The position numbers and the translations under genes were made by a program. DNA of 64,000 bases, taken from the NCBI GenBank assembly GCA_963723075.1, contig CAVRPD010000001.1, positions 53,726 through 117,725 of the forward strand, given 5' to 3'. Position 1 is the stretch's first letter. Every line of letters starts with the position of its first letter. Positions 13,942-59,437 of the stretch are shown one piece after another. The notes beneath the pieces were generated by a model. That model saw nothing but the letters and a program-made list of their open reading frames with translations, had not been told where the DNA came from and made no database searches. The stretch is from an uncultured Solirubrobacterales bacterium (GTDB lineage: Bacteria; Actinomycetota; Thermoleophilia; Solirubrobacterales; Solirubrobacteraceae).

Positions 13942-13945
13942 AGAA

Positions 13946-15136: not shown

Positions 15137-15201
15137 TGGGGGATCTCTCCTCGGGTTCTGTGAAGTTGGCGGGGCGGGAAGGTAAGACGGAGCTGCTCGA
15201 C

Positions 15202-15250
15202 GGGACTGCGCCGGGACTGCGCGCCGGGGACTGCGCGACGGGACTTGTGC
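15202..15250. repeat. Four direct repeats of GGGACTGCGC (the last degenerate) in a divergent promoter region
   Basis: gggactgcgc occurs at 15202, 15213 and 15227, and gggacttgtgc at 15240. The period is 11-14 bp. Confidence 0.75.
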
Positions 15251-15302
15251 ACGCGAGCGCGCGACGCGACGCCAGGGGGAGGCTAACGGAGTCCTCAGAG
15301 AA

Positions 15303-15325
15303 AGTAAACAGTAGAGCTGCTTACT
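15303..15325. promoter_or_regulatory. Imperfect palindrome (putative operator) upstream of the crotonase/carboxyltransferase operon
   Basis: AGTAAACAG-tagag-CTGCTTACT has 8/9 complementary arms. It is AT-rich and ends 27 nt before the ATG at 15353. Confidence 0.4.
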
Positions 15326-15352
15326 TCCCACGAGCGGCGAGATCCGGTTAGG

Positions 15353-16153
15353 ATGGCGTTCGTGGGCGACACCTCCGACGAACCGGTCCTCTATGGCCTC
15401 GCCGACGGCGTGGCGACGATCACGCTGAACGAGCCCGACACGCGCAACGCGCTGTCGGCCGAGCTGCTCGCCGGGCTGCTCGCCGCCTTCGAGCGCGCCG
15501 AGCACGATTCCGGCGCGCGCTGTGTCGTGCTCTGCTCCGCGCACGAGCGCACCTTCTCCTCCGGCGCCAACCTCGGCGGGTTCGCCGGCGACGCGGCGCT
15601 CGTGCACAAGCACTTCGCGTCCGAGCGCTTCGTCGCCCTGTTTCGCCGGATCGGCTCGCTGACGAAGCCGACCTTGTGCGCGGTGCGCGGCCACGTGCTC
15701 GCGGGCGCGCTCGGGATCGCGCTCGCGTGCGATTTGATCGTCGCCTCCGAGGACGCCACGTTCGGCACGCCCGAGATCAACATCGGCACGTTCCCGTTCA
15801 TGATCATGGCGCTGATCTATCGCAACGTTCCCCGCAAGAAGGCCAACGAGCTGCTCCTGCTCGGCGAGCGCTGCTCAGCGCAGGAGGCGCTCGCGGCCGG
15901 GATCGTCAACAAGGTGGTGCCGGCGGAGGCGTTTGACGCGGCGGTTGCCGAGTGGGCGGCCAAGCTCGCGTCGAAGTCGCCCGCGATCATGCGTCTCGGC
16001 AAGGAAGCGATGCGCCGCCAGCTCGACATGCCCTTGGACGACGCGCTCGACTACCTGCGCGCACAGCTCTCGCTCGCGCTCTCGACCGAGGACATCGTCG
16101 AGGGCGTGACCGCGTTCTTCGAGAAGCGCGAGCCCGTTTGGAAAGGACGATGA
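15353..16153 (+). CDS. Enoyl-CoA hydratase/isomerase family protein
   Basis: 'TLNEPDTRNAL', 'GHVLAGALGIALACDL' and 'FFEKREPVWKG'. Its stop overlaps the next ATG (ATGA). Confidence 0.9.
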   Translation: MAFVGDTSDEPVLYGLADGVATITLNEPDTRNALSAELLAGLLAAFERAEHDSGARCVVLCSAHERTFSSGANLGGFAGDAALVHKHFASERFVALFRRIGSLTKPTLCAVRGHVLAGALGIALACDLIVASEDATFGTPEINIGTFPFMIMALIYRNVPRKKANELLLLGERCSAQEALAAGIVNKVVPAEAFDAAVAEWAAKLASKSPAIMRLGKEAMRRQLDMPLDDALDYLRAQLSLALSTEDIVEGVTAFFEKREPVWKGR

Positions 16154-17709: not shown

Positions 17710-17826
17710 GGCCCGTATGCCTGCGCGCTACGGCGTCCTCAGTCGCTCGTGTGCGGAGCACACTTCGCGAATTGCCTGTGCCCGTCAGGGTGCGTCCTTG
17801 TATCGCTTGGCCTACGGGCCTCATAC
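17704..17826 (+). repeat. Long-range 14-bp perfect inverted repeat enclosing an internal hairpin (intercistronic)
   Basis: GTATGAGGCCCGTA (17704-17717) is complementary to TACGGGCCTCATAC (17813-17826). An internal hairpin gtgtgc-gga-gcacac lies between them. The left arm spans the carboxyltransferase stop codon. Confidence 0.7.
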
Positions 17827-17853
17827 CGCGTAATGATTCAGCCGAGGTGAGTC

Positions 17854-18735
17854 ATGAGTCTTGACCATCCGGTAGTCATCACCTGCTCGATCTCCGGCGC
17901 GATCGCCAACCGTGCGCAGTGCCCGGCGATCCCGTATACGCCGGCCGAGTACGCGGCGGAGGCGCGGCGGATCGTGGACGAGGGTGGCGTGATGATCCAC
18001 ATCCACGCGCGCAAACCGGACGGTACGCCGTCGTATGAGATCGAGGATTTCGCCGCGATCAGCGAGGCGATCCGCGCGGAGGTGGGCGACGCGGCGATCG
18101 TGAACTTCTCGACGGGCACGATCGGCGTCCCGGTGGAGAAGCGGGTCGAGTACCTGCGCGCCTGCCGGCCGGAGGTGGCGGCGCTGAACATGGGCTCGAT
18201 GAACTACGCGAAGTATTCGCGCACGCGCAAAGAGTTCGTTTTCAAGATGGTGTTCGCCAACCCGTTCGACGAGATCATCGAGCTGCTGGAAGCGATGAAC
18301 GAGCTGGGAATCAAACCTGAGCACGAGTGCTTCGACATCGGCCACGTCGGCTCGCTCGCGCCGCTGATCGACATGGGCGTGCTGAAGACGCCGCTGCACG
18401 TCGACTGCGTGATGGGCGTCGTCGGCGGCATCCCGCCGAGCGCGCGCAACCTCGCGGCGATGGTCGAGAACCTGCCGGCGGGCTCGCACTGGGGCGTGAT
18501 CGGGATCTCGCGCGAGCAGTGGATGCTCGTGTCGGCGGCGCTGACGCTCGGCGGATCGATCCGCGTGGGCCTGGAGGACAACCTGTATCTGCCGAACGGC
18601 GAGATGGCGAAGTCGAACGGCGAGCTGATCGCCAAGGCGCGGCAGATGACCGAAGATGTCGGCCGCCGCCCTGCGACCGTGGCGGAGGCCCGCGCGATGC
18701 TGCACGTGACCCAGCGTGCGGGGAGCACGGCGTGA
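17854..18735 (+). CDS. Beta-keto acid cleavage enzyme family (BKACE/DUF849, 3-keto-5-aminohexanoate cleavage-like)
   Basis: 293 aa with 'VVITCSISGA', 'MIHIHARKPDGTPS', 'NMGSMNY' and 'IRVGLEDNLYLPNGE', typical of the BKACE TIM-barrel family. Confidence 0.85.
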   Translation: MSLDHPVVITCSISGAIANRAQCPAIPYTPAEYAAEARRIVDEGGVMIHIHARKPDGTPSYEIEDFAAISEAIRAEVGDAAIVNFSTGTIGVPVEKRVEYLRACRPEVAALNMGSMNYAKYSRTRKEFVFKMVFANPFDEIIELLEAMNELGIKPEHECFDIGHVGSLAPLIDMGVLKTPLHVDCVMGVVGGIPPSARNLAAMVENLPAGSHWGVIGISREQWMLVSAALTLGGSIRVGLEDNLYLPNGEMAKSNGELIAKARQMTEDVGRRPATVAEARAMLHVTQRAGSTA

Positions 18736-18793
18736 GGACCGCGCTTAGAAGGCGGCCCACCGGCCGCTGCGGGCGTGCGCGTGGGGGACCGCG

Positions 18794-20059
<1,266 letters not shown>

Positions 20060-41896: not shown

Positions 41897-42535
41897 CTAC
41901 TGCCCGGACGGGTAGGTCCCGGCCACGATCCGGCCGGTGACCGGGTCGATGTGCTTGCTCGGTGGAGCGGGGGCGATGTCGGCGGTGAAGCTCCCGCGCA
42001 CGGGGCCGCCGGAGGCGAGCCGGGCTTTGGCCTTGCCGGCGAGGCCGGCGGCGATGGTGAAGTGGACCGTGTGCATGCCGGCCGTCACGGGCGTCACCTG
42101 CCAGCGGAAGATCGCGGTGTGCTTCGCCGCGAGCGGGCCGAGCGCCCAGGTGTCGACGTAGGCCGTCTGGGCGCCGCCGGCCGGGCTGACGGCTTCGCTC
42201 GGCACGGGCGGGTTGGCGCGCTTGCCGGGCCCTTGTTCGACGATCCACACGGGACGCTGGTCGGAAGCGAGGTGGGGGTAGTCGGATGTGTAGGCGAAGG
42301 AGTCGACGGAGACCGCCACGTTCGGCGCCGCGTGGGCGCCCGTGTTGCGGATCTCGAGCGCGAAGGTCGCCGGGCGGACCATCGACTGCTTGGCGGGGAA
42401 GCTCGCGTGGAGGACCTTCAACGTGAACGTGGCGGCGTGTTCGTGCGCGTCCTGGCGCGCGAGGCCGCCGCAGCCGGCCGCGCCGAGCACGGCGCAAGCA
42501 CCGAGAAGCACTGCTGGAAAGACCCGCCCCCTCAC
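41897..42535 (-). CDS. Lipoprotein of unknown function (Ig-like beta-rich)
   Basis: GTG start. 'VFPAVLLGACAVLGAAGCGG' contains a lipobox (LGAAGC). It is the C-terminal part of ORF 41897..42871. Confidence 0.6.
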   Translation of the reverse strand: MRGRVFPAVLLGACAVLGAAGCGGLARQDAHEHAATFTLKVLHASFPAKQSMVRPATFALEIRNTGAHAAPNVAVSVDSFAYTSDYPHLASDQRPVWIVEQGPGKRANPPVPSEAVSPAGGAQTAYVDTWALGPLAAKHTAIFRWQVTPVTAGMHTVHFTIAAGLAGKAKARLASGGPVRGSFTADIAPAPPSKHIDPVTGRIVAGTYPSGQ

Positions 42536-42668
42536 GATGACGCCACGATACAACAGAGAGTGGCGTGCAGGGGGCCCATGGGACACCACCGAGGGTGGCG
42601 CGCACGGGGCGCATGGCGTAGAGTTCGCCGAAGCACCGATCGCGAACGGGAGGGAGGGGTCGAGGACG

Positions 42669-43475
42669 ATGGTTCGCAGCACAGCCGAGCGGGCGTTCCT
42701 TCCGGCGAGGCATCTGCTCGAGGAATTCGGGGACATGATGATCCTCACGGGCAGGACCGTCTGGTCCGCCCTGCGCCCTCCGTATCCATACGGCGGCGAG
42801 CTCGTCTCCCAGTTCCTGTTCGCGCTGCGGCTGGTGTGGCTGCCGCTGATGATCTCGACGATCGCGATCAACTACGGGGCACCAGGGCTGCAGGCTGCCA
42901 ACTTCCTGACGATCCTCGGCGCCGTGGACCGCCTCGGCGGCTTCTTCGTGCTCGCCGCGATCCGCGAAATCGGCCCGCTGATCACCGCGATCGTGCTTGC
43001 CGGGGTGGCGGGCACTGCGATCACGGCCGATCTGGGCGCGCGCAAGGTCAGGGAGGAGCTCGACGCGCTGCAGGTGCTCGGTGTCGACCCGGTCAAGAAC
43101 CTGGTCGTGCCGCGGTTTCTCGCGTTGATGGTGGTGACGGGCCTGTTCGACATCTACGCGCTGCTGTTCGGCATCTTCGGAGGACTGCTCGCGGCGATCA
43201 TCAACCATCAGCCGCTGGGACCGTTCTGGGTCACGCTGTTCGCGAACGCGTCGGTGACGGACCTGTGGGGCTCGGTGCTGAAGACGACGATCTTCGGGGC
43301 GATCATCGCGATCGTGTGCTGCTACAAGGGCATGACCGCCTCCGGGGGCGCCGAGGGCGTCGGCCGCGCGGTCAACCAGGCCGTCGTGACCTCGTTCCTG
43401 GGGATCGGCGCGTTCAACTACGTCTTCACGCAGACCTTGCTGGCAACCCATCCACAGATATTGGTGATCAAGTGA
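42669..43475 (+). CDS. MlaE/YrbE-family ABC permease
   Basis: Starts at MVRSTAERAF within ORF 42342..43475. It has 'REIGPLITAIVLAGVAGTAITADLGARKVREELDALQVLGVDP'. Confidence 0.88.
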   Translation: MVRSTAERAFLPARHLLEEFGDMMILTGRTVWSALRPPYPYGGELVSQFLFALRLVWLPLMISTIAINYGAPGLQAANFLTILGAVDRLGGFFVLAAIREIGPLITAIVLAGVAGTAITADLGARKVREELDALQVLGVDPVKNLVVPRFLALMVVTGLFDIYALLFGIFGGLLAAIINHQPLGPFWVTLFANASVTDLWGSVLKTTIFGAIIAIVCCYKGMTASGGAEGVGRAVNQAVVTSFLGIGAFNYVFTQTLLATHPQILVIK

Positions 43476-43599
43476 TGGCCGGTCTGCGGCGCTATCCGCC
43501 ACCCGCGATGCTCGCCGTGCAACCAGCACGGCTGCGCTCGCGTGCGACGCCTAGCATCCACAGGCCGACCATCACTGTGTTTGTGCTCGGAGGGGACCG

Positions 43600-44400
43600 A
43601 TGAACGAAATGTTTGCGATGCCGCGCGAATGGCTCGCCTCGACCGGCGAAATCGGCGGCTTTGCGCGCCACATGATCCGTGACGTGTGGGGCCTGCGGGT
43701 GTTTCGCTTCTTCGGCGAGGCGCTGCGCCAGTCGGGGATCCTGATCGTCGGCTCGACCGCGGTGATCTGGGCGCTGGTGTTCATCACCGGCCTTGGCACG
43801 TGCGGGATCGAGGGCGCGTACTTCACGCAGGCTCAGGGAGCGCCCGCGTATGCGGGCGTGTTCACGGCGTGGTGCAACCTGCGCGAGGCGGTGCCGTACG
43901 CATTCGGGTACATGATGGCCGCGAAGGTCGGCACGGGCATCGTGGCCGAGCTCGGCGCGATGCGGATCAGCGAGGAGATCGACGCGCTCGAGGTGATGGG
44001 GATCGACTCGATGACGTTCCTGTGCGCGACGCGCCTGCTGGCCACCTGGATCGTGCTGCCGTTCATGTACATCTCGGCGATCGGGGTCGCCTATCTGGCG
44101 TCCTATCTCGCGGTGGTGGATCAGATCGGGTACACCTCCGCGGGAGGGTATCTGCTGATCTTCTGGCAGTTCCAGAACCCGCTGGACTTCCTGTACAGCG
44201 TGATCAAGGGCATGAGCATGGCCACGGCGATCGTGCTCGTGGCGTGCTACTACGGCTACAACGCCAGTGGTGGGCCCGTGGGCGTGGGTACGGCGACGGC
44301 GAAGTCGATGGTGCTCAACCTTGTGCTCGTGAACCTGATCGGAATGCTCGGCACGCAGGTGTTCTGGGGCGCCAATCCGCGAGCTCCGATCGGAGGCTGA
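43600..44400 (+). CDS. MlaE/YrbE-family ABC permease (second paralog)
   Basis: 'GTGIVAELGAMRISEEIDALEVMGIDS'. 266 aa. Confidence 0.88.
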   Translation: MNEMFAMPREWLASTGEIGGFARHMIRDVWGLRVFRFFGEALRQSGILIVGSTAVIWALVFITGLGTCGIEGAYFTQAQGAPAYAGVFTAWCNLREAVPYAFGYMMAAKVGTGIVAELGAMRISEEIDALEVMGIDSMTFLCATRLLATWIVLPFMYISAIGVAYLASYLAVVDQIGYTSAGGYLLIFWQFQNPLDFLYSVIKGMSMATAIVLVACYYGYNASGGPVGVGTATAKSMVLNLVLVNLIGMLGTQVFWGANPRAPIGG

Positions 44401-44405
44401 GAGCC

Positions 44406-45395
44406 GTGACGGACTCGCGGGAACGCCCAGACGAGGAGCAGCGCGACCTCCAGCCTCAAAGCGCTGGAGATGTGCCGGGCGGAGCGGGTGGGGATCCTTC
44501 GTCACCGATCGCCGCGGAGGCGGGCGGAGGGGATGGAGCCGGGGAGGTGGCCAACGCCGGGGTGGTGCTCAATCCGCCCTCGCGCGAGGGCGAGGAGGAG
44601 GAGTTCCGCTACCACACGGGCACGATCCGGCCGTCGAAGGAGCCCGACGCGATCGAGTTCATCGACGTGCACAAGTCATTCGGGCGCAACCACGTGCTGC
44701 GCGGCCTGAGCATGGGTCTGCCGGAGAACAAGATCTCGATGATCATCGGGCCTTCAGGCACGGGCAAGTCGGTGTGCATCAAGCACATCGTCGGCCTGCT
44801 GTATCCCGACGAGGGCGACGTGCTCGTGCACGGCCGGTCGATCCCGGCTCTGCCTGACTCTGAGCTGTTCGAGATCCGCAAGAAGTTCGGCGTGCTGTTT
44901 CAGGACGGCGCGCTGTTCGGGTCGCTGAACCTGTACGACAACATCGCGTTTCCGTTGCGCCAGCACACCGAGAAGGGCGAGGAGGAGATCGCGGAGATCG
45001 TCAATCGCCGCATGCGCGAGGTCGGCCTGGGAGGGGAGGGCACGAAGATGCCCAACCAGCTCTCCGGCGGCATGCGCAAGCGCGCCGGGTTCGCGCGCGC
45101 GCTCGTGCTCGACCCCGAGATCGTGCTGTTCGACGAGCCCGACTCAGGGCTCGACCCCGTACGCACGGCGTTGCTGTGCGAGCTGATCAAGGAAGTCCAC
45201 GCCGAGAACGGCGGTTGCTATGTGGTGATCACGCACGACATCATGAGCGCGCGGCGCGTCGCCGAGCACATCTCGGTCCTGTGGAAGGGCCGGATCGTCG
45301 AATCGGGGCCGGCGGAAGAGCTTTTCGCGTCAGAGAACCCGTTCGTTCGCCAGTTCTTGTCTGGTGAATCGGCTGGGCCCCTCGGAATGGAGTGA
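44406..45395 (+). CDS. MlaF/Mkl-type ABC ATPase with a low-complexity N-terminal extension
   Basis: Walker A 'GPSGTGKS', signature 'LSGGMRKR', Walker B 'VLFDEPDSGLD' and 'NPFVRQF'. The GTG at 44406 is uncertain. Confidence 0.88.
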   Translation: MTDSRERPDEEQRDLQPQSAGDVPGGAGGDPSSPIAAEAGGGDGAGEVANAGVVLNPPSREGEEEEFRYHTGTIRPSKEPDAIEFIDVHKSFGRNHVLRGLSMGLPENKISMIIGPSGTGKSVCIKHIVGLLYPDEGDVLVHGRSIPALPDSELFEIRKKFGVLFQDGALFGSLNLYDNIAFPLRQHTEKGEEEIAEIVNRRMREVGLGGEGTKMPNQLSGGMRKRAGFARALVLDPEIVLFDEPDSGLDPVRTALLCELIKEVHAENGGCYVVITHDIMSARRVAEHISVLWKGRIVESGPAEELFASENPFVRQFLSGESAGPLGME

Positions 45396-48091
45396 ACCCG
45401 GCTCGAATTCTCGCGGCCCTGGTCGCAGGGGCGATTCGCCGGCCGCGGCTGACGGTCGCGCTTGCGATCGTGCTGGGGCTCGGGGGGGCGGCGTTCGCGT
45501 CGCGGTTGCACCCGAGCGCGGCGACGAGCACGTTCGTGTCGAGCTCGAGCTCGCAGTACAAGGAAACCCAGCGCTACTACAAGAACTTCGGCGAAGAGCC
45601 GATCGTGGTGCTGGTGAAAGGGAGCCTGCAGCAGCTCGTGCTCAGCTCGGACATCGACCGGCTGGTCGGGTTGGAGGGCTGCCTGTCGGGCAATGTCCCC
45701 GCCGCCGCGCTGCCTCACGAGGGTGGGCGGAGCGGACCCTGCGGGCAGCTCGCTCGAGCGCGGACGGTGAAGGTCGTGTTCGGGCCGGGCACGTTCATCA
45801 ACGAGGCCGCGACCCAAATCGACGAACAGCTCGCCGCGCAGTCCAGGCAGGCGGAAGCCCAGGCCAAGCAGGCGCAGCGGGTCGTGACCCAGGCCGCGCT
45901 TCAGCGCGGGCTGACGGCGGCCGAAGCGCAGGCGCTCGGCAAGCAGGCGAGCAAGATCACGACGGCGCGCTTTCAGGAGAACCTCGCGACGCTTGCGCTG
46001 CAGTACGGCCTCACCTCCCAGCCGAGCCTGAACGATCCCAACTTCGTCTCGACGCTCGTGTTCGACTCGAGCAAGCCGGCCGGCACGCCGAAGCAGCGCT
46101 TCGCGTACCTGTTCCCCAGCAGCGACTCGGCGGTCGTCTCCGTGCGGATGAAGGCGGGTCTGTCCGAACGCGCGCGGACGCGCACGATCGCGCTGATCCG
46201 CGAAGCGGTGCGGATGAAGCAGTGGCGGCTGCAGCATGGCGAGGCGTACCTGGTGACGGGCGAGCCGGTGATCGTCGCCGACCTCAACAACGCGATCGGG
46301 CACGCGATCGAGCTGCTGCTGGTGGCGGTGCTGCTGGTGATGGCGGGCGCGCTCGGCCTGGTCTTCTCCGGGCGCCCGCGGCTGCTGCCGCTTGCGGTGG
46401 CGCTGCTCGCCGCGGCCCTCACGTTCGGCGCGCTGTCGATCGTCGGCGCGTCGCTGACGATGGCGTCGATTGCCGTCTTGCCCGTGCTCGTGGGGCTTGC
46501 GGTGGACTACGCGATCCAGTTCCAGTCGCGCGTGCACGAGGCCGGTGAGGAAGGCGGCGGGGACGACATGCGGACGGTCGTTCGGCGTGCGGCGGTCCTC
46601 GGCGGCCCGGCGATCGCCACGGCCGGCGCCGCCAGCGCGGGCGCGATGGTCGTGCTGGCATTGTCGCCGGTGCCGATGGTCCGCGGCTTTGGGCTGCTGC
46701 TGGTGGTGGGGGTGGCGATCGCGTTCCTGTGCGTGCTGACAGCGGGCGCGGCGATGCTCGTGCTGGCAGGCGATGGGCGAGGGCATGACCGCCGCCGGTC
46801 CCTGGCGTACGCGTCGGAGGGATGGCTGGGATCCGCGTGGCGCGGAGCGCGCGAGCTCTTGCTCGACAATTTCGCGACCCGCTTCGTCTCACGGGCTGCG
46901 CTGGTCGGAGCCGTGCGCCGCCCAGGGAGGATGCTCGGCGTCGGTCTCGCGCTGGCGGTGCTCGGCTGGGGCCTCGATACGCAGACTCAGGTGCAGACCG
47001 ACATCACCAGGTTGGTCCCTCAGAGCTCGAGCTCGTTGCGGAGCCTGAACACGCTCGAGCGGATTACCGGCGTGGGGGGCGAAATCGACCTGATGGTGTC
47101 CGCCAAGGATCTGGCCAAGCCGGCGACGGTCGAATGGATGAGCTCATACGAGAGCGCGATGCTGAAACGTTTCGGCTACAGCGACGCGGGCGGTTGCCGT
47201 AAGGCACGGCTGTGCCCGGCGTTCTCTCTGCCGGATCTGTTCCACGTCCAGGCCGGCGCCACGTCCAAGGCGCCGAAGCTCAAGCAGGCGGAAATAAGCG
47301 GTCTGCTCAGTGCGATCCCGCCGTACTTCTCCCAGGATGTGATCGCTCCCGGCAGGCGCGTGGCCGCGCTTGCGTTCGGCATCCGTCTGATGGGGCTCGG
47401 CCGCCAGCAGCAGCTGATCGAGGAGATGCGCTCGAGCCTGCACCCGCCGGCAGGGGTGAGAGCTCGGCTCGTGGGTCTGGGAGTGCTGGCGGCCCAGTCG
47501 GGCGCGGAGGTGGCCTCTCCCTGGCGCCGGATCGAGTCGCTGATCGCCGGCCTGGCCGCGGTGGCGCTGGTGCTGCTGATCGCCTTCCGCGGAGACCGCC
47601 GCCGGGCGCTCGTGCCGCTTGTGCCGATCGTGCTGGCAACGGGATGGTCGTCGCTGATCCTGTTCGCGGTGCGTGTGCCGCTGAACCCGATGTCGATCAC
47701 GCTGGGATCACTGGTGATCGCGATCTCGACCGAGTTCAGCGTGCTGCTGTCCGAGCGCCACCGTCAGGAGCGGTTGGCCGGCTACGGCACGGTCGAGGCG
47801 CTGCGCCGCAGCTACCGCCGCACGGGGGCCGCGGTGGCGGCCTCGGGGGTGACGGCGATAGCGGGCTTCGGGGTGCTGGCGCTGTCGGATATCGCGATGC
47901 TGCGCGACTTCGGGCTGGTCACGCTGATCGACCTGAGTGCGTCCTTGGTGGGGGTCCTCGTGGCGCTGCCGGCGGCTTTGACGATCGCCGAAGGCGACGA
48001 GGAGCCGGCAAGGATACGGCGAGCGCTCGTGCACGCGCTCGCCGGCGTACGGTCCCGCGGCCGGGGTCGCACACGCCATGAGCCCGTCTAG
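45392..48091 (+). CDS. MMPL/RND-superfamily transporter (HpnN-like architecture)
   Basis: 899 aa with two 6-TM bundles, each preceded by a large soluble loop. The GTG overlaps the stop of the ATPase gene (GTGA). Confidence 0.85.
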   Translation: MNPARILAALVAGAIRRPRLTVALAIVLGLGGAAFASRLHPSAATSTFVSSSSSQYKETQRYYKNFGEEPIVVLVKGSLQQLVLSSDIDRLVGLEGCLSGNVPAAALPHEGGRSGPCGQLARARTVKVVFGPGTFINEAATQIDEQLAAQSRQAEAQAKQAQRVVTQAALQRGLTAAEAQALGKQASKITTARFQENLATLALQYGLTSQPSLNDPNFVSTLVFDSSKPAGTPKQRFAYLFPSSDSAVVSVRMKAGLSERARTRTIALIREAVRMKQWRLQHGEAYLVTGEPVIVADLNNAIGHAIELLLVAVLLVMAGALGLVFSGRPRLLPLAVALLAAALTFGALSIVGASLTMASIAVLPVLVGLAVDYAIQFQSRVHEAGEEGGGDDMRTVVRRAAVLGGPAIATAGAASAGAMVVLALSPVPMVRGFGLLLVVGVAIAFLCVLTAGAAMLVLAGDGRGHDRRRSLAYASEGWLGSAWRGARELLLDNFATRFVSRAALVGAVRRPGRMLGVGLALAVLGWGLDTQTQVQTDITRLVPQSSSSLRSLNTLERITGVGGEIDLMVSAKDLAKPATVEWMSSYESAMLKRFGYSDAGGCRKARLCPAFSLPDLFHVQAGATSKAPKLKQAEISGLLSAIPPYFSQDVIAPGRRVAALAFGIRLMGLGRQQQLIEEMRSSLHPPAGVRARLVGLGVLAAQSGAEVASPWRRIESLIAGLAAVALVLLIAFRGDRRRALVPLVPIVLATGWSSLILFAVRVPLNPMSITLGSLVIAISTEFSVLLSERHRQERLAGYGTVEALRRSYRRTGAAVAASGVTAIAGFGVLALSDIAMLRDFGLVTLIDLSASLVGVLVALPAALTIAEGDEEPARIRRALVHALAGVRSRGRGRTRHEPV

Positions 48092-48752
48092 CAGGGAGCG
48101 GCCGATGGGGGCCCAGCGCTATGGCCCATACCTGGCGGTGCTGGGACTCGTGATCCTCGTGCTGGTCGCGATCAACACGGCGCTGACCAAGCCCACCGGC
48201 GTGGCCGGCGTGCAGCCGGGCAGCGGGCTGCCGCCGTTCGCGGTGCCGCTTGCGACGGGGATCATGAAGGGGGACGCGAACATCGCCACACGGGCCGACG
48301 AGGGGGAAGCGGGCACGCACCCGGCCTGCTCGGTGAGGGGGGCCGGGATACTCAACGTGTGTCAGCTCTACGAACAGGGCCCGGTGGTGCTCGCGCTGTT
48401 CGTCGACCTCGGCTCCTGCCCGGCGGTCTTGACCGATATGGAGGCGCTCGCGCCCTCCTTCCCCGGCGTGCGGTTCGCGGCGGTTGCGATCAAAGGTGAC
48501 CGTGGCCCTCTGCGCAAGCTGATTCGCACTCGCGGTCTCGTGCATGTCGCGGTCGGGATCGACGAGGACGGAGCGCTGGCAACGCTCTACAAGGTTGCGA
48601 GCTGTCCACAGGTGACGTTTGCCTATCCGGGAGGCGTCGTGCAGAGCAGAGCGCTGCTGGCCACGCCGTCGTCCGCCACGCTGCGGGCGCGCGTGCAGGC
48701 GCTGGTGGCCGACGCGCGTGCAAGAGGCTGGAAGGAGCCAAGCCGGGGATGA
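48078..48752 (+). CDS. Membrane-anchored thioredoxin-fold (TlpA/redoxin-like) protein lacking CXXC
   Basis: N-terminal TM 'YLAVLGLVILVLVAINTAL'. 'VVLALFVDLGSCPAVL' sits where WCxxC normally lies and has a single Cys. It overlaps the MMPL stop by 14 nt. Confidence 0.6.
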   Translation: MSPSSRERPMGAQRYGPYLAVLGLVILVLVAINTALTKPTGVAGVQPGSGLPPFAVPLATGIMKGDANIATRADEGEAGTHPACSVRGAGILNVCQLYEQGPVVLALFVDLGSCPAVLTDMEALAPSFPGVRFAAVAIKGDRGPLRKLIRTRGLVHVAVGIDEDGALATLYKVASCPQVTFAYPGGVVQSRALLATPSSATLRARVQALVADARARGWKEPSRG

Positions 48753-49414
48753 GCAGCGATGCTCAGCCGGCCCCGGGGTGGCGTGCTCGCGAGATCGAGG
48801 AGGAGTTGCCAGAGCTTGAGATCCTCGTGATCGAGGCTCGGTTTACGGGGGATGGAGCGCTGACCGGCGACTCTCCGCGGGAGGTCCAAGATCGCCTGCG
48901 CGATCTGTCCAACCGCTTCCGCGGCGCCCAGGCCGTCGCCATGCGCCGCGAGCCGGTCCCGGCCGCCTACCGTGTCTTCTTCCGTCACATCGGGCTCGAT
49001 CCCGATGTCGTGCGCACGCCGATCGAGGCTGCGGTGCTCGAGCGGATGGTGCATGGAGGCTTTCGCACGGGTGGCCTGCTGGAGGACGTGTTGAGGATCG
49101 CCCTGCTCGACACCGGCGTGCCGGTGTGGGCGCTCGACGCGAGCACCGTGGAGGGCCCGCTCGGAATCCGTCCCAGCAGCGAGGGCGAGCCGCTCGGACG
49201 CGGCGCGGGGGCGCCGTTGCTGCCGGCCGGTCGCCTGGTCGTCGCCGACGCCTCGGCGGCTCTCGCCGTCCTGTTCGGCGGGCTCGCCCCCAAGCACGAG
49301 CCCGTGGCCGGCACCCGCCGGTTGGAGCTGTTCGCCGTGCGTGTGGCCGGGGTCCCGGCGCTGTACGCCGAGGAGGCGCTGTGGAGTTGTCAGGCAGCGC
49401 TCGAGCGGATGTGA
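48749..49414 (+). CDS. B3/B4 (PheRS-beta-like tRNA-binding) domain protein
   Basis: 'PAAYRVFFRHIGLDPD' and 'ALLDTGVPVWALD'. ATGA overlap with the upstream gene. Confidence 0.6.
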   Translation: MSSDAQPAPGWRAREIEEELPELEILVIEARFTGDGALTGDSPREVQDRLRDLSNRFRGAQAVAMRREPVPAAYRVFFRHIGLDPDVVRTPIEAAVLERMVHGGFRTGGLLEDVLRIALLDTGVPVWALDASTVEGPLGIRPSSEGEPLGRGAGAPLLPAGRLVVADASAALAVLFGGLAPKHEPVAGTRRLELFAVRVAGVPALYAEEALWSCQAALERM

Positions 49415-49508
49415 GTGGTGCTCGGGCGGCTGCCACGGCGTGCTCGAGCGATTTTCGGAGGAACGTTTCGGAACATCTTTGGAGGGCCATGAGCGACGGC
49501 ATCGGCGC

Positions 49509-49517
49509 TGGTAGAAT
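49509..49517 (+). promoter_or_regulatory. Extended -10 promoter element (TGgTAGAAT)
   Basis: tggtagaat lies 32 nt upstream of the GTG at 49550, which is preceded by GGGAGGAG. No good -35 element was seen. Confidence 0.4.
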
Positions 49518-49549
49518 CTCTGGCTCTGACGTTATGGGAGGAGTCGGGT

Positions 49550-50350
49550 GTGATAGCCCAGTCCGAGCAGCCAGTAGTCATCGCAGGCGAAGCATCGAAC
49601 GCGGAGCAGCAGGCTCGTCGTGCTCTGCGCGGACAGATCGCGAGAATGGAGCGAGAGCTGTCGGGGATCGTCGCCGGCGCCTTCCCGCACATCTCGCCGA
49701 TCTCAGACCCCGCCGGAGAGGTTTTCACGGCGGGTGAGGCTCGCTGCGCGGATCACATGCGCTCCGGTCCGTGCCTGCTCACGCTGGCGGAGCTCGAGCG
49801 GATGCGCGACAGTCTCGCCGGCCGGGTACAGGACCTACGCAGGCTGGCGGTCGAGCGGGACGAGCACGAGCGGCGCTCGCATGAGCTGTTGAAGCGCATG
49901 AAGCTCGAACCCGGGCGCTACAAGTTCGCGCGCCTGCCCGTGAAAGACCTCGGCGAAGGGGGCTGTGGGGTTTGGGAGGTGCGCCCGCGGCTCGGTCTGA
50001 TCGGCATGCTCGCGGGCTGGTGGCACGTCAAGCTCTCCTCGGGCTGCCCGTTACCCAGGGGCCACGCTGCGGCGTGGCCCTCTCCATGGCACTCTCCCAT
50101 GGTCCCACTCCGGCGTGGCCCTCTCCATGGCCGTGGTCCTCTCACTCTTCTGCGAAACCTAACATCACCGCAAGCGTGTGACGCTGACGATCGGTCATCG
50201 ATCCGATCGTCTTCTTCTCCGGCATCGGTATCTGCGCCAGGACCTTGCGGCAGCGGGCCTGCCCCCAGCGACGCTGACTCATCAGCAGGTCGACGATCGC
50301 CATGCTGCGCGCTTCCCACGGACACTCGAGGATCACCGTGGCGACATTGA
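49550..50350 (+). CDS. Hypothetical protein; 3' end doubtful (tail overlaps the convergent gene)
   Basis: The first ~170 aa look protein-like (coiled 'RALRGQIARMERELS', 'GCGVWEVRPRLGLIGMLAGWWHVKLSSGCP'). After ~50060 the frame runs through repeats and antisense to the mIHF-like gene until the stop at 50350. Confidence 0.5.
   Translation: MIAQSEQPVVIAGEASNAEQQARRALRGQIARMERELSGIVAGAFPHISPISDPAGEVFTAGEARCADHMRSGPCLLTLAELERMRDSLAGRVQDLRRLAVERDEHERRSHELLKRMKLEPGRYKFARLPVKDLGEGGCGVWEVRPRLGLIGMLAGWWHVKLSSGCPLPRGHAAAWPSPWHSPMVPLRRGPLHGRGPLTLLRNLTSPQACDADDRSSIRSSSSPASVSAPGPCGSGPAPSDADSSAGRRSPCCALPTDTRGSPWRH
50070..50131. repeat. 21-bp perfect direct repeat plus a 9-bp-stem hairpin
   Basis: cggcgtggccctctccatggc occurs at 50070-50090 and 50111-50131. 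The hairpin gggccacgc-tgcg-gcgtggccc is at 50059-50080. Confidence 0.8.
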
Positions 50351-50468
50351 TCTCGCCCGTCGCCACCCGGCGCTTGAGCTCGGCTCGGGCGAGACGGACC
50401 TCGTTGGCTCGTTCCAGGGCACGCATGTACTGCGGACCGGCAGGGGCGATCGTCGCTGTCGCGTTCAT
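50142..50468 (-). CDS. mihF: Actinobacterial integration host factor (mIHF)-like small DNA-binding protein
   Basis: 108 aa. 'RALERANEVRLARAELKRRVATGE...VDLLMSQRRWGQARCRKVLAQI...GSMTDRQRHTLAVML' has the same layout as mIHF proteins. Recognised from memory, not searched. Confidence 0.6.
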   Translation of the reverse strand: MNATATIAPAGPQYMRALERANEVRLARAELKRRVATGEINVATVILECPWEARSMAIVDLLMSQRRWGQARCRKVLAQIPMPEKKTIGSMTDRQRHTLAVMLGFAEE

Positions 50469-50789
50469 GTGGGCACTCTCCCCGTTGCCGTCGCGAGCTC
50501 TCTCGCTACCGGCAACATGCTTGCTCGATTTTTGACGGGTGGGCGTTCGTCACGACCGTCCGAGCCCCATTCGCGACGGGTTGCGGCCTGTCTCGAAACT
50601 TAATCGCCCCGATCCCGGCGGTGGGTGGGGCGAGCTCGAACGGTCATGCAAAGCGCCTCCCCAAGCTATGTCAGCGTGGGGCTCGCGGTCAACACCGCGC
50701 TCGAAGTTCGTGCGCTAGAAGCGGCCTTTTTTATTGTCGTGAGGACTTGTGAAGAAATGGACAAGGCTCCGGCGGCGGGGTGCTCGGCC

Positions 50790-52184
50790 TCAGCCCACCG
50801 AGCTGTGGGAGGGCCCCGGCAACGGCCCGTGCTCGGCCTCGAACTCGAGTTTGACGCGTGCGAACACTTCCAGCGCCCGGTCGAGCGTGGGAGTGTCGTG
50901 CGTGGCCATCACGCTGGTGCGCAACAGCGCGCCGCCGGGCGGGACCGCCGGGTGCAGGGCACAGTTCGTGAACACGCCGCCGTCATACAGCGCGCGCCAG
51001 AGCAGCGCGGCCTTCCAGTCGTCGCCGACGAGCAAGGGGACGATTGGCGTGACGATCGTCCCCGTGGGAGCGTCCTCGCCCGGACCGAGTCGCACGGGCT
51101 CGCCGCTCAACACCTGAAAGCCGAGCGCGCGCAGCCCGTCGGCCAGGTAGCGCGCCTGCTCGAGTACCGCCGCAAGCAGCGCGGGCCCCTCCGGGGAGCG
51201 GATGATGCGCAGGGCGGCCAGGGCCGCCCCCAGGGCCGCTGGGACGGCGGAGGCGGTGAACAGGAACGCGCGCGAGGAGATCCGCAGGTAGTCGATCACA
51301 TCGGCCGGCCCGGCGAGGAAACCGCCACAGGAGGCGAAGGACTTCGAGAAGGTGCCCATGCGCAGGTCGACGCGGGCCTCGACCCCCAGCAGCTCGGCTG
51401 CTCCCGCGCCACGCGCGCCGAGCACACCTGCGCCGTGGGCTTCGTCCACCATCAGACGGGCGCCGTAGCGGGCGCACAGCTCGGTGATGTCCACGAGCGG
51501 CGCGACATCGCCCTCCATCGAGAAGACGCCGTCGACGACCACCATGACGCCGCCCCCGTCCTGCTGTGCTCGCGACAGGGCTCGCTCCAGCTTGTCGAGG
51601 CGGCCGTGGCGAAAGGGCCGCATCTTGGCCTTCGACAGCAGCACGCCGTCGAGGATCGAGGCGTGGTCGGCAGAGTCGACGATCACCGTGTCGGCGGGAC
51701 CGAGCAGCGTGCCGAGCGTGCCCACGTTCGCCTGATGGCCGGTGGTGAAGACGATCGCGTCGTCGGTGTCCATCCATTCGGCGAGCTCGCGCTCGAGCTC
51801 GAGGTGCAGGGGGGTGGTGCCGTTGAGCAGGCGCGAGCCGGTGAGGCCGGTGCCATAGCGGTGCAGCGCGTCCTCGGCGCCCTTCATCACGCGCTCGTCG
51901 GCGGTCAGCCCGAGGTAGTTGTTCGACGCGAGCATGATCCGCGGCGCGCCCTCCATCTCGACGACCGGCATCGCGGGCGACTCGACCGTGCGGAAGTAGG
52001 GCAGCAGCCCCTCCTCGCGCGCCGCCCGCAGCAGCTGCTCGCGCTCATGGCCGCGGACCTTGGCGAAGACGTCGGGCGGCTGTGCGCCGGGCAGGGCTTC
52101 GACGGGCCTTGCGTAGTCGTCCGTCGGAGGCTCGCCGGGCAAGTCCTCGGCCGGTCTCGCGGAGTCGTCTGTCGAAGTGGGCAT
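50790..52184 (-). CDS. Alpha-oxoamine synthase, serine palmitoyltransferase-like (PLP-dependent)
   Basis: 'LASNNYLGL', 'GSRLLNGT', 'DSADHASILDG', 'FRHGRLDKLERAL', 'VDEAHGAG', PLP-Lys 'GTFSKS' and 'LLRTSVMATHT'. By recollection this block order closely parallels bacterial SPT rather than BioF or Kbl. Confidence 0.8.
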   Translation of the reverse strand: MPTSTDDSARPAEDLPGEPPTDDYARPVEALPGAQPPDVFAKVRGHEREQLLRAAREEGLLPYFRTVESPAMPVVEMEGAPRIMLASNNYLGLTADERVMKGAEDALHRYGTGLTGSRLLNGTTPLHLELERELAEWMDTDDAIVFTTGHQANVGTLGTLLGPADTVIVDSADHASILDGVLLSKAKMRPFRHGRLDKLERALSRAQQDGGGVMVVVDGVFSMEGDVAPLVDITELCARYGARLMVDEAHGAGVLGARGAGAAELLGVEARVDLRMGTFSKSFASCGGFLAGPADVIDYLRISSRAFLFTASAVPAALGAALAALRIIRSPEGPALLAAVLEQARYLADGLRALGFQVLSGEPVRLGPGEDAPTGTIVTPIVPLLVGDDWKAALLWRALYDGGVFTNCALHPAVPPGGALLRTSVMATHDTPTLDRALEVFARVKLEFEAEHGPLPGPSHSSVG

Positions 52185-52198
52185 ATAAGGTTGGATCA

Positions 52199-53356
52199 GT
52201 GAGCGTGTCTGAGCGAACGGGCGTCCAGGTCACACCGGTATCCGGCAGGGCGGACCTGAAAGCCTTCATCCACCTGCCGTTCCGGCTGCATGCTAACCAT
52301 CCGCTGTGGGTTCCCCTGCCGAAGCTCGAGCGCTGGGTGTTCTTGAACCGCCGGCTGAACGCTTTCTTCAGCCATGGCGAAGCCGAGTACTTCCTCGCTC
52401 GGCGCGACGGGCGGGTCGTGGGGCGGATCACAGCCCAGGTCAACCATGCGTTCAACGACTACCAGAAGAAGCGCTGGGGCTGGTACGGGTTCCTGGAGCT
52501 CGAGGACGACCAGGAGGTCCTCGACGCGTTGCTCGCGGCCGCCGAGGCGTGGTTGCGCGCGCGGGGCATGGAGCGCATGGTGGGCCCGGCCGACTTTTCG
52601 ATGAACGAAGAGAGTGGCATCCTGATCGAGGGCTTCGAGCTGCGGCCGATGATCAAGCAGCCCTGGCACCCGCCCTACTATCAGCAGCGCATGGAGCAGG
52701 CGGGGATGAGCAAGGCGATGGACCTGCTGATGTGGAAACTCGAGGTGTCCGACCGCAAGAAGGTGCTGCCCGTGATTTGGGAGCTCGCGGAGAAGGTGCA
52801 GTCCGAGCACGGGATCAGGGTGCGCCCGATGCGCCGCTCCCAGCTGCGCAAAGACATGGACGCCTTCGCCGAGGTCTACAACGCCGCGTGGTCTCAGAAC
52901 TGGGACTTCGTGCCGTACTCGAAGAAGGACCTCGACGCCTACGCCCAGGAGATCCAGCTGGTGTTCGACAAGCACTGGTGCTTCATCGCCGAGCGCGAAG
53001 ACACCGGCGAGGTGGTCGGCATGGCGATGACCTTCCCCGACATCAATCAGGTGCTCGAAAAAATGAACGGCCGCTTCTTCCCGCTCGGCTGGTGGCATTT
53101 TCTGCGCAAGGGCAAGGTCACCGACCGCGTGCGCGTCGGCTTTCTGGGCGTCAAGCCCGAGTACCAGCACACGGGCGTGGCGGCGAGGCTCTACCAACTG
53201 CATTTCGACGCGGCCGAGCATCGCCCGCAGAAGGGCGGGGAGATGGGCTGGATCCTCGAGACCAACACCCCGATGAACCGCGGCATGGAAGCGATGGGGG
53301 CAGAGGTGGTCAAGCGCTACCGGGTTTACGAGCGGCTGCTCGAGGCAGGGGCCTAG
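52199..53356 (+). CDS. ~385-aa GNAT-like N-acyltransferase family protein
   Basis: GTG at 52199. 'LKAFIHLPFRLHANHPLWVPLP', 'WGWYGFLE', 'GPADFSMNEESGILIEGF', 'LGVKPEYQHTGVAARLY' and 'GWILETNTPMNRGME'. Confidence 0.7.
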   Translation: MSVSERTGVQVTPVSGRADLKAFIHLPFRLHANHPLWVPLPKLERWVFLNRRLNAFFSHGEAEYFLARRDGRVVGRITAQVNHAFNDYQKKRWGWYGFLELEDDQEVLDALLAAAEAWLRARGMERMVGPADFSMNEESGILIEGFELRPMIKQPWHPPYYQQRMEQAGMSKAMDLLMWKLEVSDRKKVLPVIWELAEKVQSEHGIRVRPMRRSQLRKDMDAFAEVYNAAWSQNWDFVPYSKKDLDAYAQEIQLVFDKHWCFIAEREDTGEVVGMAMTFPDINQVLEKMNGRFFPLGWWHFLRKGKVTDRVRVGFLGVKPEYQHTGVAARLYQLHFDAAEHRPQKGGEMGWILETNTPMNRGMEAMGAEVVKRYRVYERLLEAGA

Positions 53357-53473
53357 CACCCGGCCCGATGGCGCCGCTTCGATCAGGGCCAAGCAGCCAG
53401 CCTATCCTCGCCGCTCCGATCAGCCGCTCGCCGGCGGCCCAACGCCGCCGCCCCTATCTCTAGACTCGTCAGG

Positions 53474-53818
53474 GTGAGCGAGCCCGCAGAGCCAGAGGCG
53501 GTTACCGGGGACACCGAGGAAGTCGACGCGCTCGTGGTGCTCCCCGAGGCTCAGGTGCTCGTGGCGCAGACGCCCTCACGGGCGATGGTCCCTGTCGCCC
53601 AGGCCGCGGCGGTGGCGGCCGGAGGGTTCGTAGCGGGCGCCGCCGTGGTCGGTCTCGTGGGCCGTCACCGGGCCAGGAGATCGCGCGGGCTGGCCGCACG
53701 TCGGCGAGGCGGGGGGAAGGAGCGCATGCGTGGTGCGGAGCTGCTGCAGATCGTAGGCAGCCGCTCGCTGCTGGTAGACGTGCACCTGCTCGGTGGACGC
53801 GGCGGTGTTGGACAGTAG
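53474..53818 (+). CDS. Small hypothetical protein with one TM helix
   Basis: GTG start. It has an acidic N-terminus, a TM helix 'AAAVAAGGFVAGAAVVGLVG' and a basic stretch. Its stop lies inside a tandem duplication. Confidence 0.4.
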   Translation: MSEPAEPEAVTGDTEEVDALVVLPEAQVLVAQTPSRAMVPVAQAAAVAAGGFVAGAAVVGLVGRHRARRSRGLAARRRGGGKERMRGAELLQIVGSRSLLVDVHLLGGRGGVGQ

Positions 53819-53863
53819 GACGCACACGTGCTCGGTGGACGCGGCGGCTCCGGACAGCAGGAC
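53777..53863. repeat. ~42-bp tandem duplication (2 copies, a few mismatches)
   Basis: The core tgctcggtggacgcggcgg occurs at 53787-53805 and 53829-53847. The flanks are cac(c/g)...ggacag(t/c)aggac. Confidence 0.8.
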
Positions 53864-53921
53864 TGCTGCTACTCGGGACGGCAAGGACAGGTCTGCGGGT
53901 CTGCGGGAGGTGCGCCGTGAG

Positions 53922-54782
53922 GTGAGGCCGGCAAGCGTGTTTCGGCTACCACAGCGTCTCGGTATGGACGGCGTGACACGCAGACGGGGAGGCGTGATCG
54001 AGCGGTTGCTGCACGACGAGCACGGCGAGCCCGTTGTCGTGCGAGTAGCGCAGACTGCGCCCGACGCGGTGCTGTTCGGCGCGTGCGCAGCGAGCCGACG
54101 GAGCGCCGAGCACGGGATCGCGCGCATGCGCTTCGCACTGGGCGTCGACGACGATCTGCGCGCGTTCTGCAAGCGTCATGCGGGAGATCCGCTGATCGGC
54201 GCCTCGCTGCGGCGCCGGCCGTGGCTGCGGGTGGGCCGCAGGCCCGAGCCGTTCGAGGCGCTTGTGTGGGCCGTGTGTGAGCAGCTGATTGAGTACGAGC
54301 GAGCGGCCGCGATCCAGAGCCGGCTGGTGAGGCGCTGCGGGCGGCGCTGGAGCAGCGCGGACGCCGCGAGCTGGGCAGCGGGGCTGCGCGACCTGCCGAC
54401 GGCGGTGACGCTCGCTGGGATGGCGCCGGCGCTGCTCGAGTCGTGCGACCTTGCGGGCGCGCGCGCTCTCGCGCTGAGAAAGGCGGCGGGTGAGGTCGCC
54501 TGCGGACGGATCGACCTGCACGGGGTGGAGCACGAGCGTGGATGGAAGCGGCTGCGCGCGATTCCCGGGATCGGAGCGTGGACGGTCGAGATACTGGCGC
54601 TGCGCGGGCAGGGCCGCTACGACCAACTGCCGGCCGGAGACATCGGGCTGCTGAAGCTCGCCGGGCGCGTTCTCAGTGGCGGCGATCCCCGCGCGCGCGC
54701 AAGCAAAGACGAAGTGCGAGAGCTGTTCGCGCCCTACGGCGAGTGGGCGGGACTGGCCGCGGTGCACGCCGCCGGCCTGTAG
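53922..54782 (+). CDS. AlkA-like DNA-3-methyladenine glycosylase II (HhH-GPD with N-terminal domain)
   Basis: 'EALVWAVCEQLIEYERAAAIQSRL', 'IPGIGAWTVEILALRG' (HhH) and 'LPAGDIGLLK'. The GTG at 53922 was chosen for its GGGAGG spacing. Start uncertain. Confidence 0.8.
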   Translation: MRPASVFRLPQRLGMDGVTRRRGGVIERLLHDEHGEPVVVRVAQTAPDAVLFGACAASRRSAEHGIARMRFALGVDDDLRAFCKRHAGDPLIGASLRRRPWLRVGRRPEPFEALVWAVCEQLIEYERAAAIQSRLVRRCGRRWSSADAASWAAGLRDLPTAVTLAGMAPALLESCDLAGARALALRKAAGEVACGRIDLHGVEHERGWKRLRAIPGIGAWTVEILALRGQGRYDQLPAGDIGLLKLAGRVLSGGDPRARASKDEVRELFAPYGEWAGLAAVHAAGL

Positions 54783-58777: not shown

Positions 58778-59437
58778 TCACGATCCACCGGAGACGACCG
58801 GGGCGGAGGCTTCCTGGGAGGGAGCCGTTTCGGATTCTTTGGCCTGTGAGGATTCCTGTGCGGCTGCCGCTTCTTTGGTTCGCGCGGCTTCCTGTGCGGC
58901 TGCCGCTTCTTTGGTTCGCGCGGCTTCCTGTGCGGCCGTGGCTTCTTTGGTTCGCGCGGCTTCCTGTGCGGCCGTGGCTTCTTTGGTTCGCGCGGCTTCC
59001 TGTGCGGCCGTGGCTTCTTTGGTTCGCGCGGCTTCCTGTGCGGCCGCGGCTTCTTTGGCCGCACTTGATTCCTGCGCCGATGTCGATTCCTTGGCCGTTG
59101 TCGATTCTTTGGCTGTGGTCGATTCCGAAGCGGTCCGCGGGGCCTCGGCAGGGGAGTGCAGCGCTTTGGTCGTGGACGAGTGGTCGGTCGAGGAGGAGGC
59201 GCCTGTGCGCCCACTCGCCTGCCCGCGCGCGCTTTTCGCCTTGGCCGCCGTTGCCGAACCGCTCTTCACAACGGTCTTACCGGGAAAAGCGTGCGCCGCG
59301 ACATCGGTCAGCACGCCGGTTGCGAGGACGCTCCCCGCAATCACTATTCGATTGACACGGCTGAGCCTGTGCAGGGCGGCGTCGCGAGCCCTGGTTGTGT
59401 GACTGCTGGCACTCGTCGGTTTACGCTTGCGTGTCAT
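58778..59437 (-). CDS. Membrane-anchored low-complexity protein with 12-aa tandem repeats (QEAARTKEA[T/A]AA)
   Basis: Basic N-terminus, one TM helix ('IVIAGSVLATGVLTDVAAHAF'), then a Ser/Thr/Ala/Lys/Glu-rich tail containing 5 near-identical repeats. First gene of the ApbE operon. Confidence 0.6.
   Translation of the reverse strand: MTRKRKPTSASSHTTRARDAALHRLSRVNRIVIAGSVLATGVLTDVAAHAFPGKTVVKSGSATAAKAKSARGQASGRTGASSSTDHSSTTKALHSPAEAPRTASESTTAKESTTAKESTSAQESSAAKEAAAAQEAARTKEATAAQEAARTKEATAAQEAARTKEATAAQEAARTKEAAAAQEAARTKEAAAAQESSQAKESETAPSQEASAPVVSGGS
58870..59049. repeat. 5 x 36-bp head-to-tail tandem repeat (coding, in frame)
   Basis: The unit cttctttggttcgcgcggcttcctgtgcggc(c/t)g(c/t)(c/g)g is repeated at 58870, 58906, 58942, 58978 and 59014. 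Degenerate copies flank it. Confidence 0.9.

Follow-up and report, generated by a model that had tools for sequence, protein, structure and literature searches.

Sphingolipids were long considered rare in bacteria, and the pathway that joins serine palmitoyltransferase (SPT, encoded by spt), a bacterial ceramide synthase (bCerS) and the reductase CerR was defined in 2021-2022. Here, we describe a pair of genes from an uncultured Solirubrobacterales bacterium, found in a 64-kb stretch of contig CAVRPD010000001.1 (the window; 69% GC), in which a 464-aa alpha-oxoamine synthase (AOS) and a 385-aa protein with two GNAT folds are encoded head to head. We consider it quite likely that these genes specify the enzymes for the first two steps of bacterial ceramide synthesis. 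The locus adds to the known Spt-bCerS system and is neither a new pathway nor a new enzyme class.

The closest described system is that of Caulobacter crescentus, in which Spt, bCerS and CerR are CCNA_01220, CCNA_01212 and CCNA_01222. The bcerS gene (ccna_01212) lies in a sphingolipid locus that runs from ccna_01212 to ccna_01226 and includes lptG2 (CCNA_01213) and lptF2 (CCNA_01214) (preprint 10.64898/2026.04.12.717747). The name aca denotes CC_1154 and yghO (ECD_02850), CC_1154 being an acyl-CoA N-acyltransferase needed for dihydroceramide synthesis (PMC9386255, Figure 9 legend). The Caulobacter and window systems both pair an SPT-type AOS with a tandem-GNAT N-acyltransferase of the YghO/Aca family, and in both the two proteins are soluble types with no predicted membrane domains. 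Acylation of 3-ketodihydrosphingosine (3-KDS) before its reduction, as modeled for Caulobacter (PMC11087976), also fits a pair with no adjacent reductase. The window pair differs in having no CerR, dedicated acyl carrier protein (ACP), acyl-ACP synthetase, or LptF2/G2 nearby, and in belonging to a monoderm actinobacterium. Its two genes diverge from starts separated by 14 nt, whereas those of Caulobacter sit in separate operons of one locus. The proteobacterial "Rhodobacteria" sphingolipid locus carries AcpR (the ACP) and AasR (the acyl-ACP synthetase) beside spt, plus lptF2/G2, and none of these was found in the Pfam-annotated parts of the window (1518-28361 and 42342-54782).

Operons from the same phylum, on plasmid 1 of Rubrobacter radiotolerans (L168) and in Streptomyces sp. 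NBC_01001 (L172), likewise have no ACP or synthetase. The window AOS and GNAT protein are 43% and 36% identical to their Rubrobacter counterparts. In both operons, however, three overlapping genes, including one for an epimerase-type reductase, run in the same direction, whereas the window pair is arranged head to head, with no reductase linked to it.

The alpha-oxoamine synthase

The AOS matches Pfam Aminotran_1_2 at 3.9e-51, and its identity to characterized SPTs is 36-42%. Its best match among solved structures is the SPT of Sphingobacterium multivorum (SmSPT; PDB 3a2b and 8guh; 303 bits, 42% identity), followed by Sphingomonas SPT (SpSPT, 253 bits), Kbl (237), cysteate acyltransferase (185), and BioF (178), with HemA and CqsA far below the SPTs. 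The catalytic residues H174, D247, H250, and K281, the last being the PLP (pyridoxal phosphate) lysine of fold-type I AOS enzymes within GTFSKS, align with H138, D210, H213, and K244 of SmSPT, and the serine-contacting residues are also the same. At positions that discriminate SPTs, the AOS carries G116, S117, R118, N121, and S280 (G80-S81-R82..N85 and S243 in SmSPT), where the corresponding residues are S-V-R..C and G in Kbl of E. coli and Coxiella and G-S-G..S and G in BioF of E. coli. The C-terminal loop is of the PAVP type seen in SmSPT, without the Arg378 of Sphingomonas SPT. The AOS departs from SmSPT in two insertions, of ~31 aa near the N-terminus and ~16 aa internally, and in having leucine in place of F83 and M271.

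A neighbor-joining (NJ) tree of 39 sequences and 375 columns leads to the same placement, with the AOS and SmSPT in one clade and Kbl and BioF outside it in 193 of 200 bootstraps (173 of 200 when SpSPT is added to the clade). Both characterized SPTs, together with AOS genes that adjoin a bCerS-like gene, delimit a clade that contains the window AOS and its orthologues from Solirubrobacteraceae. SPT models also head the NCBIfam ranking, with 375.6 and 354.8 bits; Kbl (331.7 bits, cutoff 460) and TIGR00858 BioF (328.9 bits, cutoff 426) come behind them, and all of these scores are below cutoff.

The first-pass annotation of this DNA, made by reading the sequence, had judged the AOS nearer to SPT than to BioF or Kbl, and the PDB ranking, the signature residues, and the bootstraps all agree. 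BioF and Kbl were rejected as identities for the AOS on the grounds of its NJ placement and signature residues. The sequence blocks quoted in that annotation are present for GSRLLNGT (residues 116-123), DSADHASILDG, FRHGRLDKLERAL, and GTFSKS; its final block was misread, as the sequence is LLRTSVMATHD and does not end in THT. Taken together, these comparisons support the minus-strand gene as encoding an SPT-like AOS, predicted to condense serine with acyl-CoA into 3-KDS.

Relatives also inform the reading of the N-terminus. We compared the locus with 80 sampled species-representative Solirubrobacteraceae genomes, using up to 21 kb around each pair. The AOS of these relatives begins with MPTS(T/I)D, a conservation that backs the chosen start, and most orthologues are 427-429 aa long and run straight from this motif into VFAKV. 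The ~31-aa low-complexity insertion after residue 6 of the window protein, rich in Pro, Asp, and Glu, is lineage-specific, and a relative's metatranscriptome contig omits 52074-52196. The internal insertion, LSGEPVRLGPGEDAPT, stands out against both crystallized SPTs.

The tandem-GNAT protein

Pfam detects Acetyltransf_1 in the plus-strand protein at 1.3e-9, over residues 238-349 only. An NCBIfam scan of this protein and six distant relatives returned no model for the family, and a PDB sequence search with it gave nothing at E <= 10. The family itself counts 7084 representatives at E <= 0.001, mostly full-length proteins of ~375 aa. By BLASTP, the window protein is ~33% identical to proteobacterial bCerS homologues: 32.9% over 377 of its 385 aa to E. 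coli YghO (E 2.5e-64) and 33.5% over 388 aa to the acyltransferase of the Sphingomonas parapaucimobilis sphingolipid locus (E 6e-56). The match to the Rubrobacter homologue is full-length as well (E 7e-75).

In an AlphaFold2 model (pLDDT 94.3, pTM 0.92), the chain forms a tandem of two GNAT folds. The C-terminal domain holds the acyl-CoA motif QHTGVA (Q-x-x-G-x-A), whose glycine falls in a nearly invariant column of the family. The same architecture, with two GNAT folds per chain and the acyl-CoA motif in the C-terminal one, is found in MshD (2c27), the clavulanate-pathway protein 2wpw, and MAB_4324 (7q3a). Such tandem GNATs are the closest folds among solved structures, aligning to the model with a TM-score of ~0.6 and 12-14% identity, and their substrates differ.

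The genomic settings of its members connect the family to sphingolipid loci. E. coli YghO, a member of the family, adjoins a cluster of lptF-lptG-AOS-ACP-epimerase-fatty acyl-AMP ligase (FAAL) genes. The S. parapaucimobilis member, an N-acetyltransferase, adjoins lptF/lptG on a replicon that also holds an NAD(P)H-binding protein, an ACP, and an SPT 96% identical to the crystallized SpSPT. The GNAT-like partner of ~385 aa noted in the first-pass annotation is borne out by the Pfam match, to which BLASTP adds full-length YghO/Aca homology and the model a tandem-GNAT fold. The plus-strand gene is supported as encoding a tandem-GNAT protein of the bCerS/Aca/YghO family, which by homology is predicted to N-acylate the long-chain base made by Spt.

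The family is varied in its settings and forms. The E. coli PN43 record NZ_MG591698.1 (L167), called a plasmid, carries yghO plus a full sphingolipid-type cluster; because glc genes flank this cluster, the record appears to be chromosomal DNA. In a 784-aa member from a 27.6-kb Logan contig (P0242), the entire bCerS-like unit occurs twice in tandem, which would amount to four GNAT folds. Two members are solitary (L083, 8001-9119, and L171, 8001-9185), with AOS, epimerase, and PAP2 genes absent nearby. One of the two comes from an Acidobacteriota metagenome-assembled genome (MAG), and the other is a 44%-identical relative beside a ribosomal protein/rpoA cluster. The GNAT family may include members with other roles.

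Linkage, selection, and expression

The AOS and GNAT genes are adjacent in all 80 Solirubrobacteraceae loci. Since the whole neighborhood is syntenic within this family, the count is not independent evidence for a functional link. Diverse metagenomic loci were gathered with a 16-sequence profile and counted where enough flanking DNA was present. An AOS gene is directly adjacent in 38 of these 49 loci, a CerR-like epimerase-type gene is present in 34, and a PAP2 gene in 16. One lineage has joined the two proteins in a natural Spt::bCerS fusion of 780 aa (P0249; L081 9003-13258, on an 819-kb contig), preceded by a gene for an NAD-dependent epimerase/3-beta-HSD (CerR-like) protein and followed by a PAP2 gene. 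Operons in which Spt, bCerS, and epimerase genes share one direction are found in L082, in Streptomyces sp. NBC_01001, and on the plasmid of Rubrobacter radiotolerans. The co-occurrence of the pair across genomes, which the first-pass annotation had proposed as a check, is thus seen within the family, in independent lineages, and in a single polypeptide.

Some of these loci carry further genes. The PAP2 protein beside the fusion has a faint match to phosphoinositol dihydroceramide synthase (E 0.0066). In Rubrobacter, the Spt-bCerS-reductase operon (L168 5674-11266) is followed by an LTA-synthase-family gene and lies on a 191-kb plasmid beside a type I-D CRISPR-Cas locus. On the linear plasmid of Streptomyces sp. 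NBC_01001, the gene immediately after the trio (L172 4763-9289) encodes a condensation-domain protein, which hints at further lipid modification.

Both window genes are under purifying selection, with a median dN/dS against the 80 relatives of 0.23 for the AOS and 0.16 for the GNAT gene. The GNAT protein is the best conserved of the neighborhood (median 84% identity). Close homologues are 80-97% identical, and the named ones among them belong to MAGs of Solirubrobacteraceae or Solirubrobacterales. In four soil metatranscriptomes, there are contigs with 85-99% identity to the two genes, and one relative's contig spans both start codons. These contigs come without strand or 5'-end information; they suggest that the pair is expressed in relatives in soil, with DNA carry-over possible. 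For this locus, the analysis thus shows what the genes are, which families they belong to, that they are linked, and that they are under purifying selection.

The divergent spacer

The two open reading frames face away from each other across a very short gap. The complement of the AOS start codon (CAT) occupies 52182-52184, and the plus-strand frame, which ends at 53356, has a conserved in-frame GTG at 52199-52201. Between them lie the 14 nt ATAAGGTTGGATCA, as the first-pass annotation had reported for an ATG at 52184 and a GTG at 52199 on opposite strands. Among relatives, a GTG or ATG start for the GNAT gene lies 14-16 nt from the AOS start in 43 of 75, which backs the chosen GNAT start. The head-to-head layout is lineage-specific and was seen in none of the 49 metagenomic loci. 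Table 1 lists the features of the locus.

Table 1. Features of the Spt-like/bCerS-like locus, in window coordinates
Feature	Position	Strand	Basis
Spt-like AOS, 464 aa, dependent on pyridoxal phosphate (PLP)	50790..52184	-	Pfam, PDB matches, residues, NJ tree
Pro/Asp/Glu-rich insertion, ~31 aa, after AOS residue 6	52074..52166	-	Relatives' lengths and alignments
Internal AOS insertion, ~16 aa, ~residues 358-373	51065-51112	-	Alignment to crystallized SPTs
Divergent spacer, 14 nt, with TAAGGT at 52186-52191	52185..52198	.	Relatives' comparison
Predicted bCerS/YghO-family tandem-GNAT N-acyltransferase, 385 aa	52199..53356	+	BLASTP, AlphaFold2 model, adjacency

Right after the AOS start codon comes a hexamer, TAnnGT, in which T, A, G, and T never change among relatives whereas the middle positions do (TAGGGT, TAAGGT, TATGGT, TAGTGT, TAATGT). 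The distance from its end to the GNAT start is 7-9 nt, and to the GTG of the window 7 nt. We rejected a Shine-Dalgarno site, as the variants TAATGT and TAGTGT break the run of G yet keep TAnnnT. Judged by this pattern, the hexamer is most likely an actinobacterial -10 box for a leaderless bCerS mRNA, which fits better than a ribosome-binding site. A scan of 51900-52500 for E. coli-type promoters and terminators found nothing, as expected for an actinobacterium with 69% GC. On the other side, the spt ATG has neither a -10-like hexamer nor a Shine-Dalgarno sequence ahead of it, be it in the window (52185-52230) or in relatives. The spt promoter would therefore have to lie inside the bCerS coding region, and the two transcripts would be mutually antisense.

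Proposed pathway and alternatives

In the pathway that we propose, a soluble SPT of the homodimer type would condense L-serine with a long-chain acyl-CoA to 3-KDS, and the tandem-GNAT bCerS, binding acyl-CoA in its C-terminal domain, would then N-acylate this base to 3-oxo-dihydroceramide. A reductase encoded elsewhere in the genome, either of the CerR type or another short-chain dehydrogenase/reductase (SDR), would complete dihydroceramide. Both genes would be transcribed divergently from the 14-16 nt spacer, with TAnnGT as the -10 element of a leaderless bCerS mRNA. We infer the substrates, the order of reactions (by analogy with the Caulobacter work), and the existence of the reductase.

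Several observations weigh against this proposal. The AOS falls short of every SPT equivalog cutoff (NF047600 CFB, 375.6 of 640 bits; NF047599 beta, 354.8 of 500; NF047603 alpha, 277.6 of 670), and the SPT models lead those for Kbl and BioF by only ~45 bits. These equivalog models are lineage-specific, and the bCerS-fused AOS P0249 fails likewise (470 of 640). The NJ tree has few outgroups and was built without HemA, CqsA, or cysteate acyltransferase. The tie between the window GNAT protein and Caulobacter CCNA_01212 runs through YghO and the literature, and some members of the family have no neighboring AOS (L083, L171, and 7 of the 49 metagenomic loci). No paper that names both Solirubrobacter and serine palmitoyltransferase came up in a literature search. 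Lastly, a hidden Markov model (HMM) built from 48 CerR-like sequences found no CerR-like gene in the 64 kb of the window or, in the 80 relatives, up to 10 kb from the pair.

The missing reductase bears on what the pair would make. The first-pass annotation had remarked that no reductase, ACP, or synthetase gene is visible nearby, and the HMM and Pfam searches confirm this at the locus. The "pared-down pathway" that it drew from this does not follow. Only alpha-, beta-, and gamma-proteobacterial SPTs have a dedicated ACP and acyl-ACP synthetase as accessories (PMC9386255). The AOS falls with the Sphingobacterium type, which uses acyl-CoA, and the absence of the two accessories is no reduction. 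The reductase could sit elsewhere in the genome, as in Bacteroidota, where the three ceramide genes are dispersed (PMC11334938). The same annotation had proposed that the pair makes an N-acylated amino-alcohol lipid. Its pairing of Spt with bCerS is supported here, whereas the product needs amending: because bCerS acylates 3-KDS before CerR acts in the Caulobacter model (PMC11087976), the two enzymes alone would give an N-acyl amino-ketone, 3-oxo-dihydroceramide.

It is conceivable that the same chemistry is truncated in this lineage, which would have no CerR and would either end in 3-oxo-dihydroceramide or have the ketone reduced by an unrelated enzyme. No CerR-like open reading frame was found in the window, in the 21-kb loci of the 80 relatives, or at the locus of a more distant relative with the same pair (L174), whereas 34 of the 49 metagenomic loci, as well as the Rubrobacter and Streptomyces operons, have CerR beside the pair. 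However, bacteria with dispersed genes, the Bacteroidota, still make ceramide (PMC11334938), and ~21 kb of each genome was inspected. A search with the Rubrobacter CerR-like SDR was uninformative on Solirubrobacteraceae, as the top 120 matches listed were all 63-73% identical to the query, and the few that carried names were Rubrobacteraceae. We regard a truncated pathway as unlikely. Equally doubtful is a fuller form of this idea, in which a two-enzyme, CerR-less Solirubrobacteraceae pathway, yielding 3-oxo-dihydroceramides or relying on an unrelated reductase, would be combined with a leaderless bidirectional spacer and possibly with export by Mla-like ABC and MMPL systems.

A different amino acid is a less probable explanation. 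If the AOS used glycine, alanine, or cysteate, the pair would make another N-acylated amino-ketone lipid, similar to a 1-deoxy-ceramide or a sulfonolipid. The unmet equivalog cutoffs, the 36-42% identity to characterized SPTs, and the lineage-specific insertions would be compatible with such a change, and SPTs themselves take Ala and Gly weakly (PMC10196870). Against it, the residues N52, G80, S81, H138, S243, T241, and K244, whose contacts with L-serine were described from SmSPT crystal structures (PMC10196870), are all conserved, and the match to cysteate acyltransferase is 185 bits against 303 for SmSPT. We consider a substrate other than serine improbable. The last alternative, a housekeeping BioF or Kbl beside an unrelated acetyltransferase through mere inherited synteny, has in its favor that JGI pipelines label AOS homologues "8-amino-7-oxononanoate synthase" and that neighborhood synteny is family-wide, but it is already contradicted by the NJ tree and signature residues, by an adjacency that recurs in independent lineages and a fusion in one of them, and by the homology of the GNAT protein to the acyltransferase of known sphingolipid loci, and we give it almost no credence.

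Other features of the window

Lipid transport genes lie on the plus strand at 42342-48091, 2.7-9.8 kb from the 3' end of spt, and encode two MlaE permeases, an ABC ATPase, and an 899-aa MMPL protein (RND lipid transporter). They are syntenic in 63-73 of the 80 relatives, and a second MMPL gene is found at 1518-3863 (+). An MmpL gene lies just downstream of spt in Myxococcus (2026 preprint). Export of the lipid by the Mla-like ABC and MMPL systems is a speculation.

Two acyl-CoA dehydrogenases, a carboxyl transferase, a beta-keto acid cleavage enzyme, and a family III CoA-transferase are encoded in a cluster at 12799-20059, and a classical SDR at 10287-11114, all unlinked to the pair. At 58778-59437 (-), a 219-aa open reading frame contains about eight tandem copies of the 12-aa unit AAQEAARTKEAx and adjoins ApbE-like, ferric-reductase-like, and NuoF-like frames, which were named by eye from their translations.

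Significance

The first-pass annotation had taken sphingolipid-type lipids to be poorly documented in high-GC Gram-positive lineages. The novelty is lower than this, because "several" Gram-positive Actinobacteria were predicted in 2022 to carry the genes, as cited in PMC12134224 and PMC11087976. The present comparison shows that all 80 sampled genomes of the Solirubrobacteraceae, a soil family that is abundant and for the most part uncultured, share the Spt-bCerS pair as a conserved core feature. Confirmation of the lipids would extend sphingolipid producers to the class Thermoleophilia and would matter wherever ceramides and long-chain bases serve as environmental biomarkers. It would also provide a monoderm system for asking about the reductase step and about how such lipids are exported without a periplasm.

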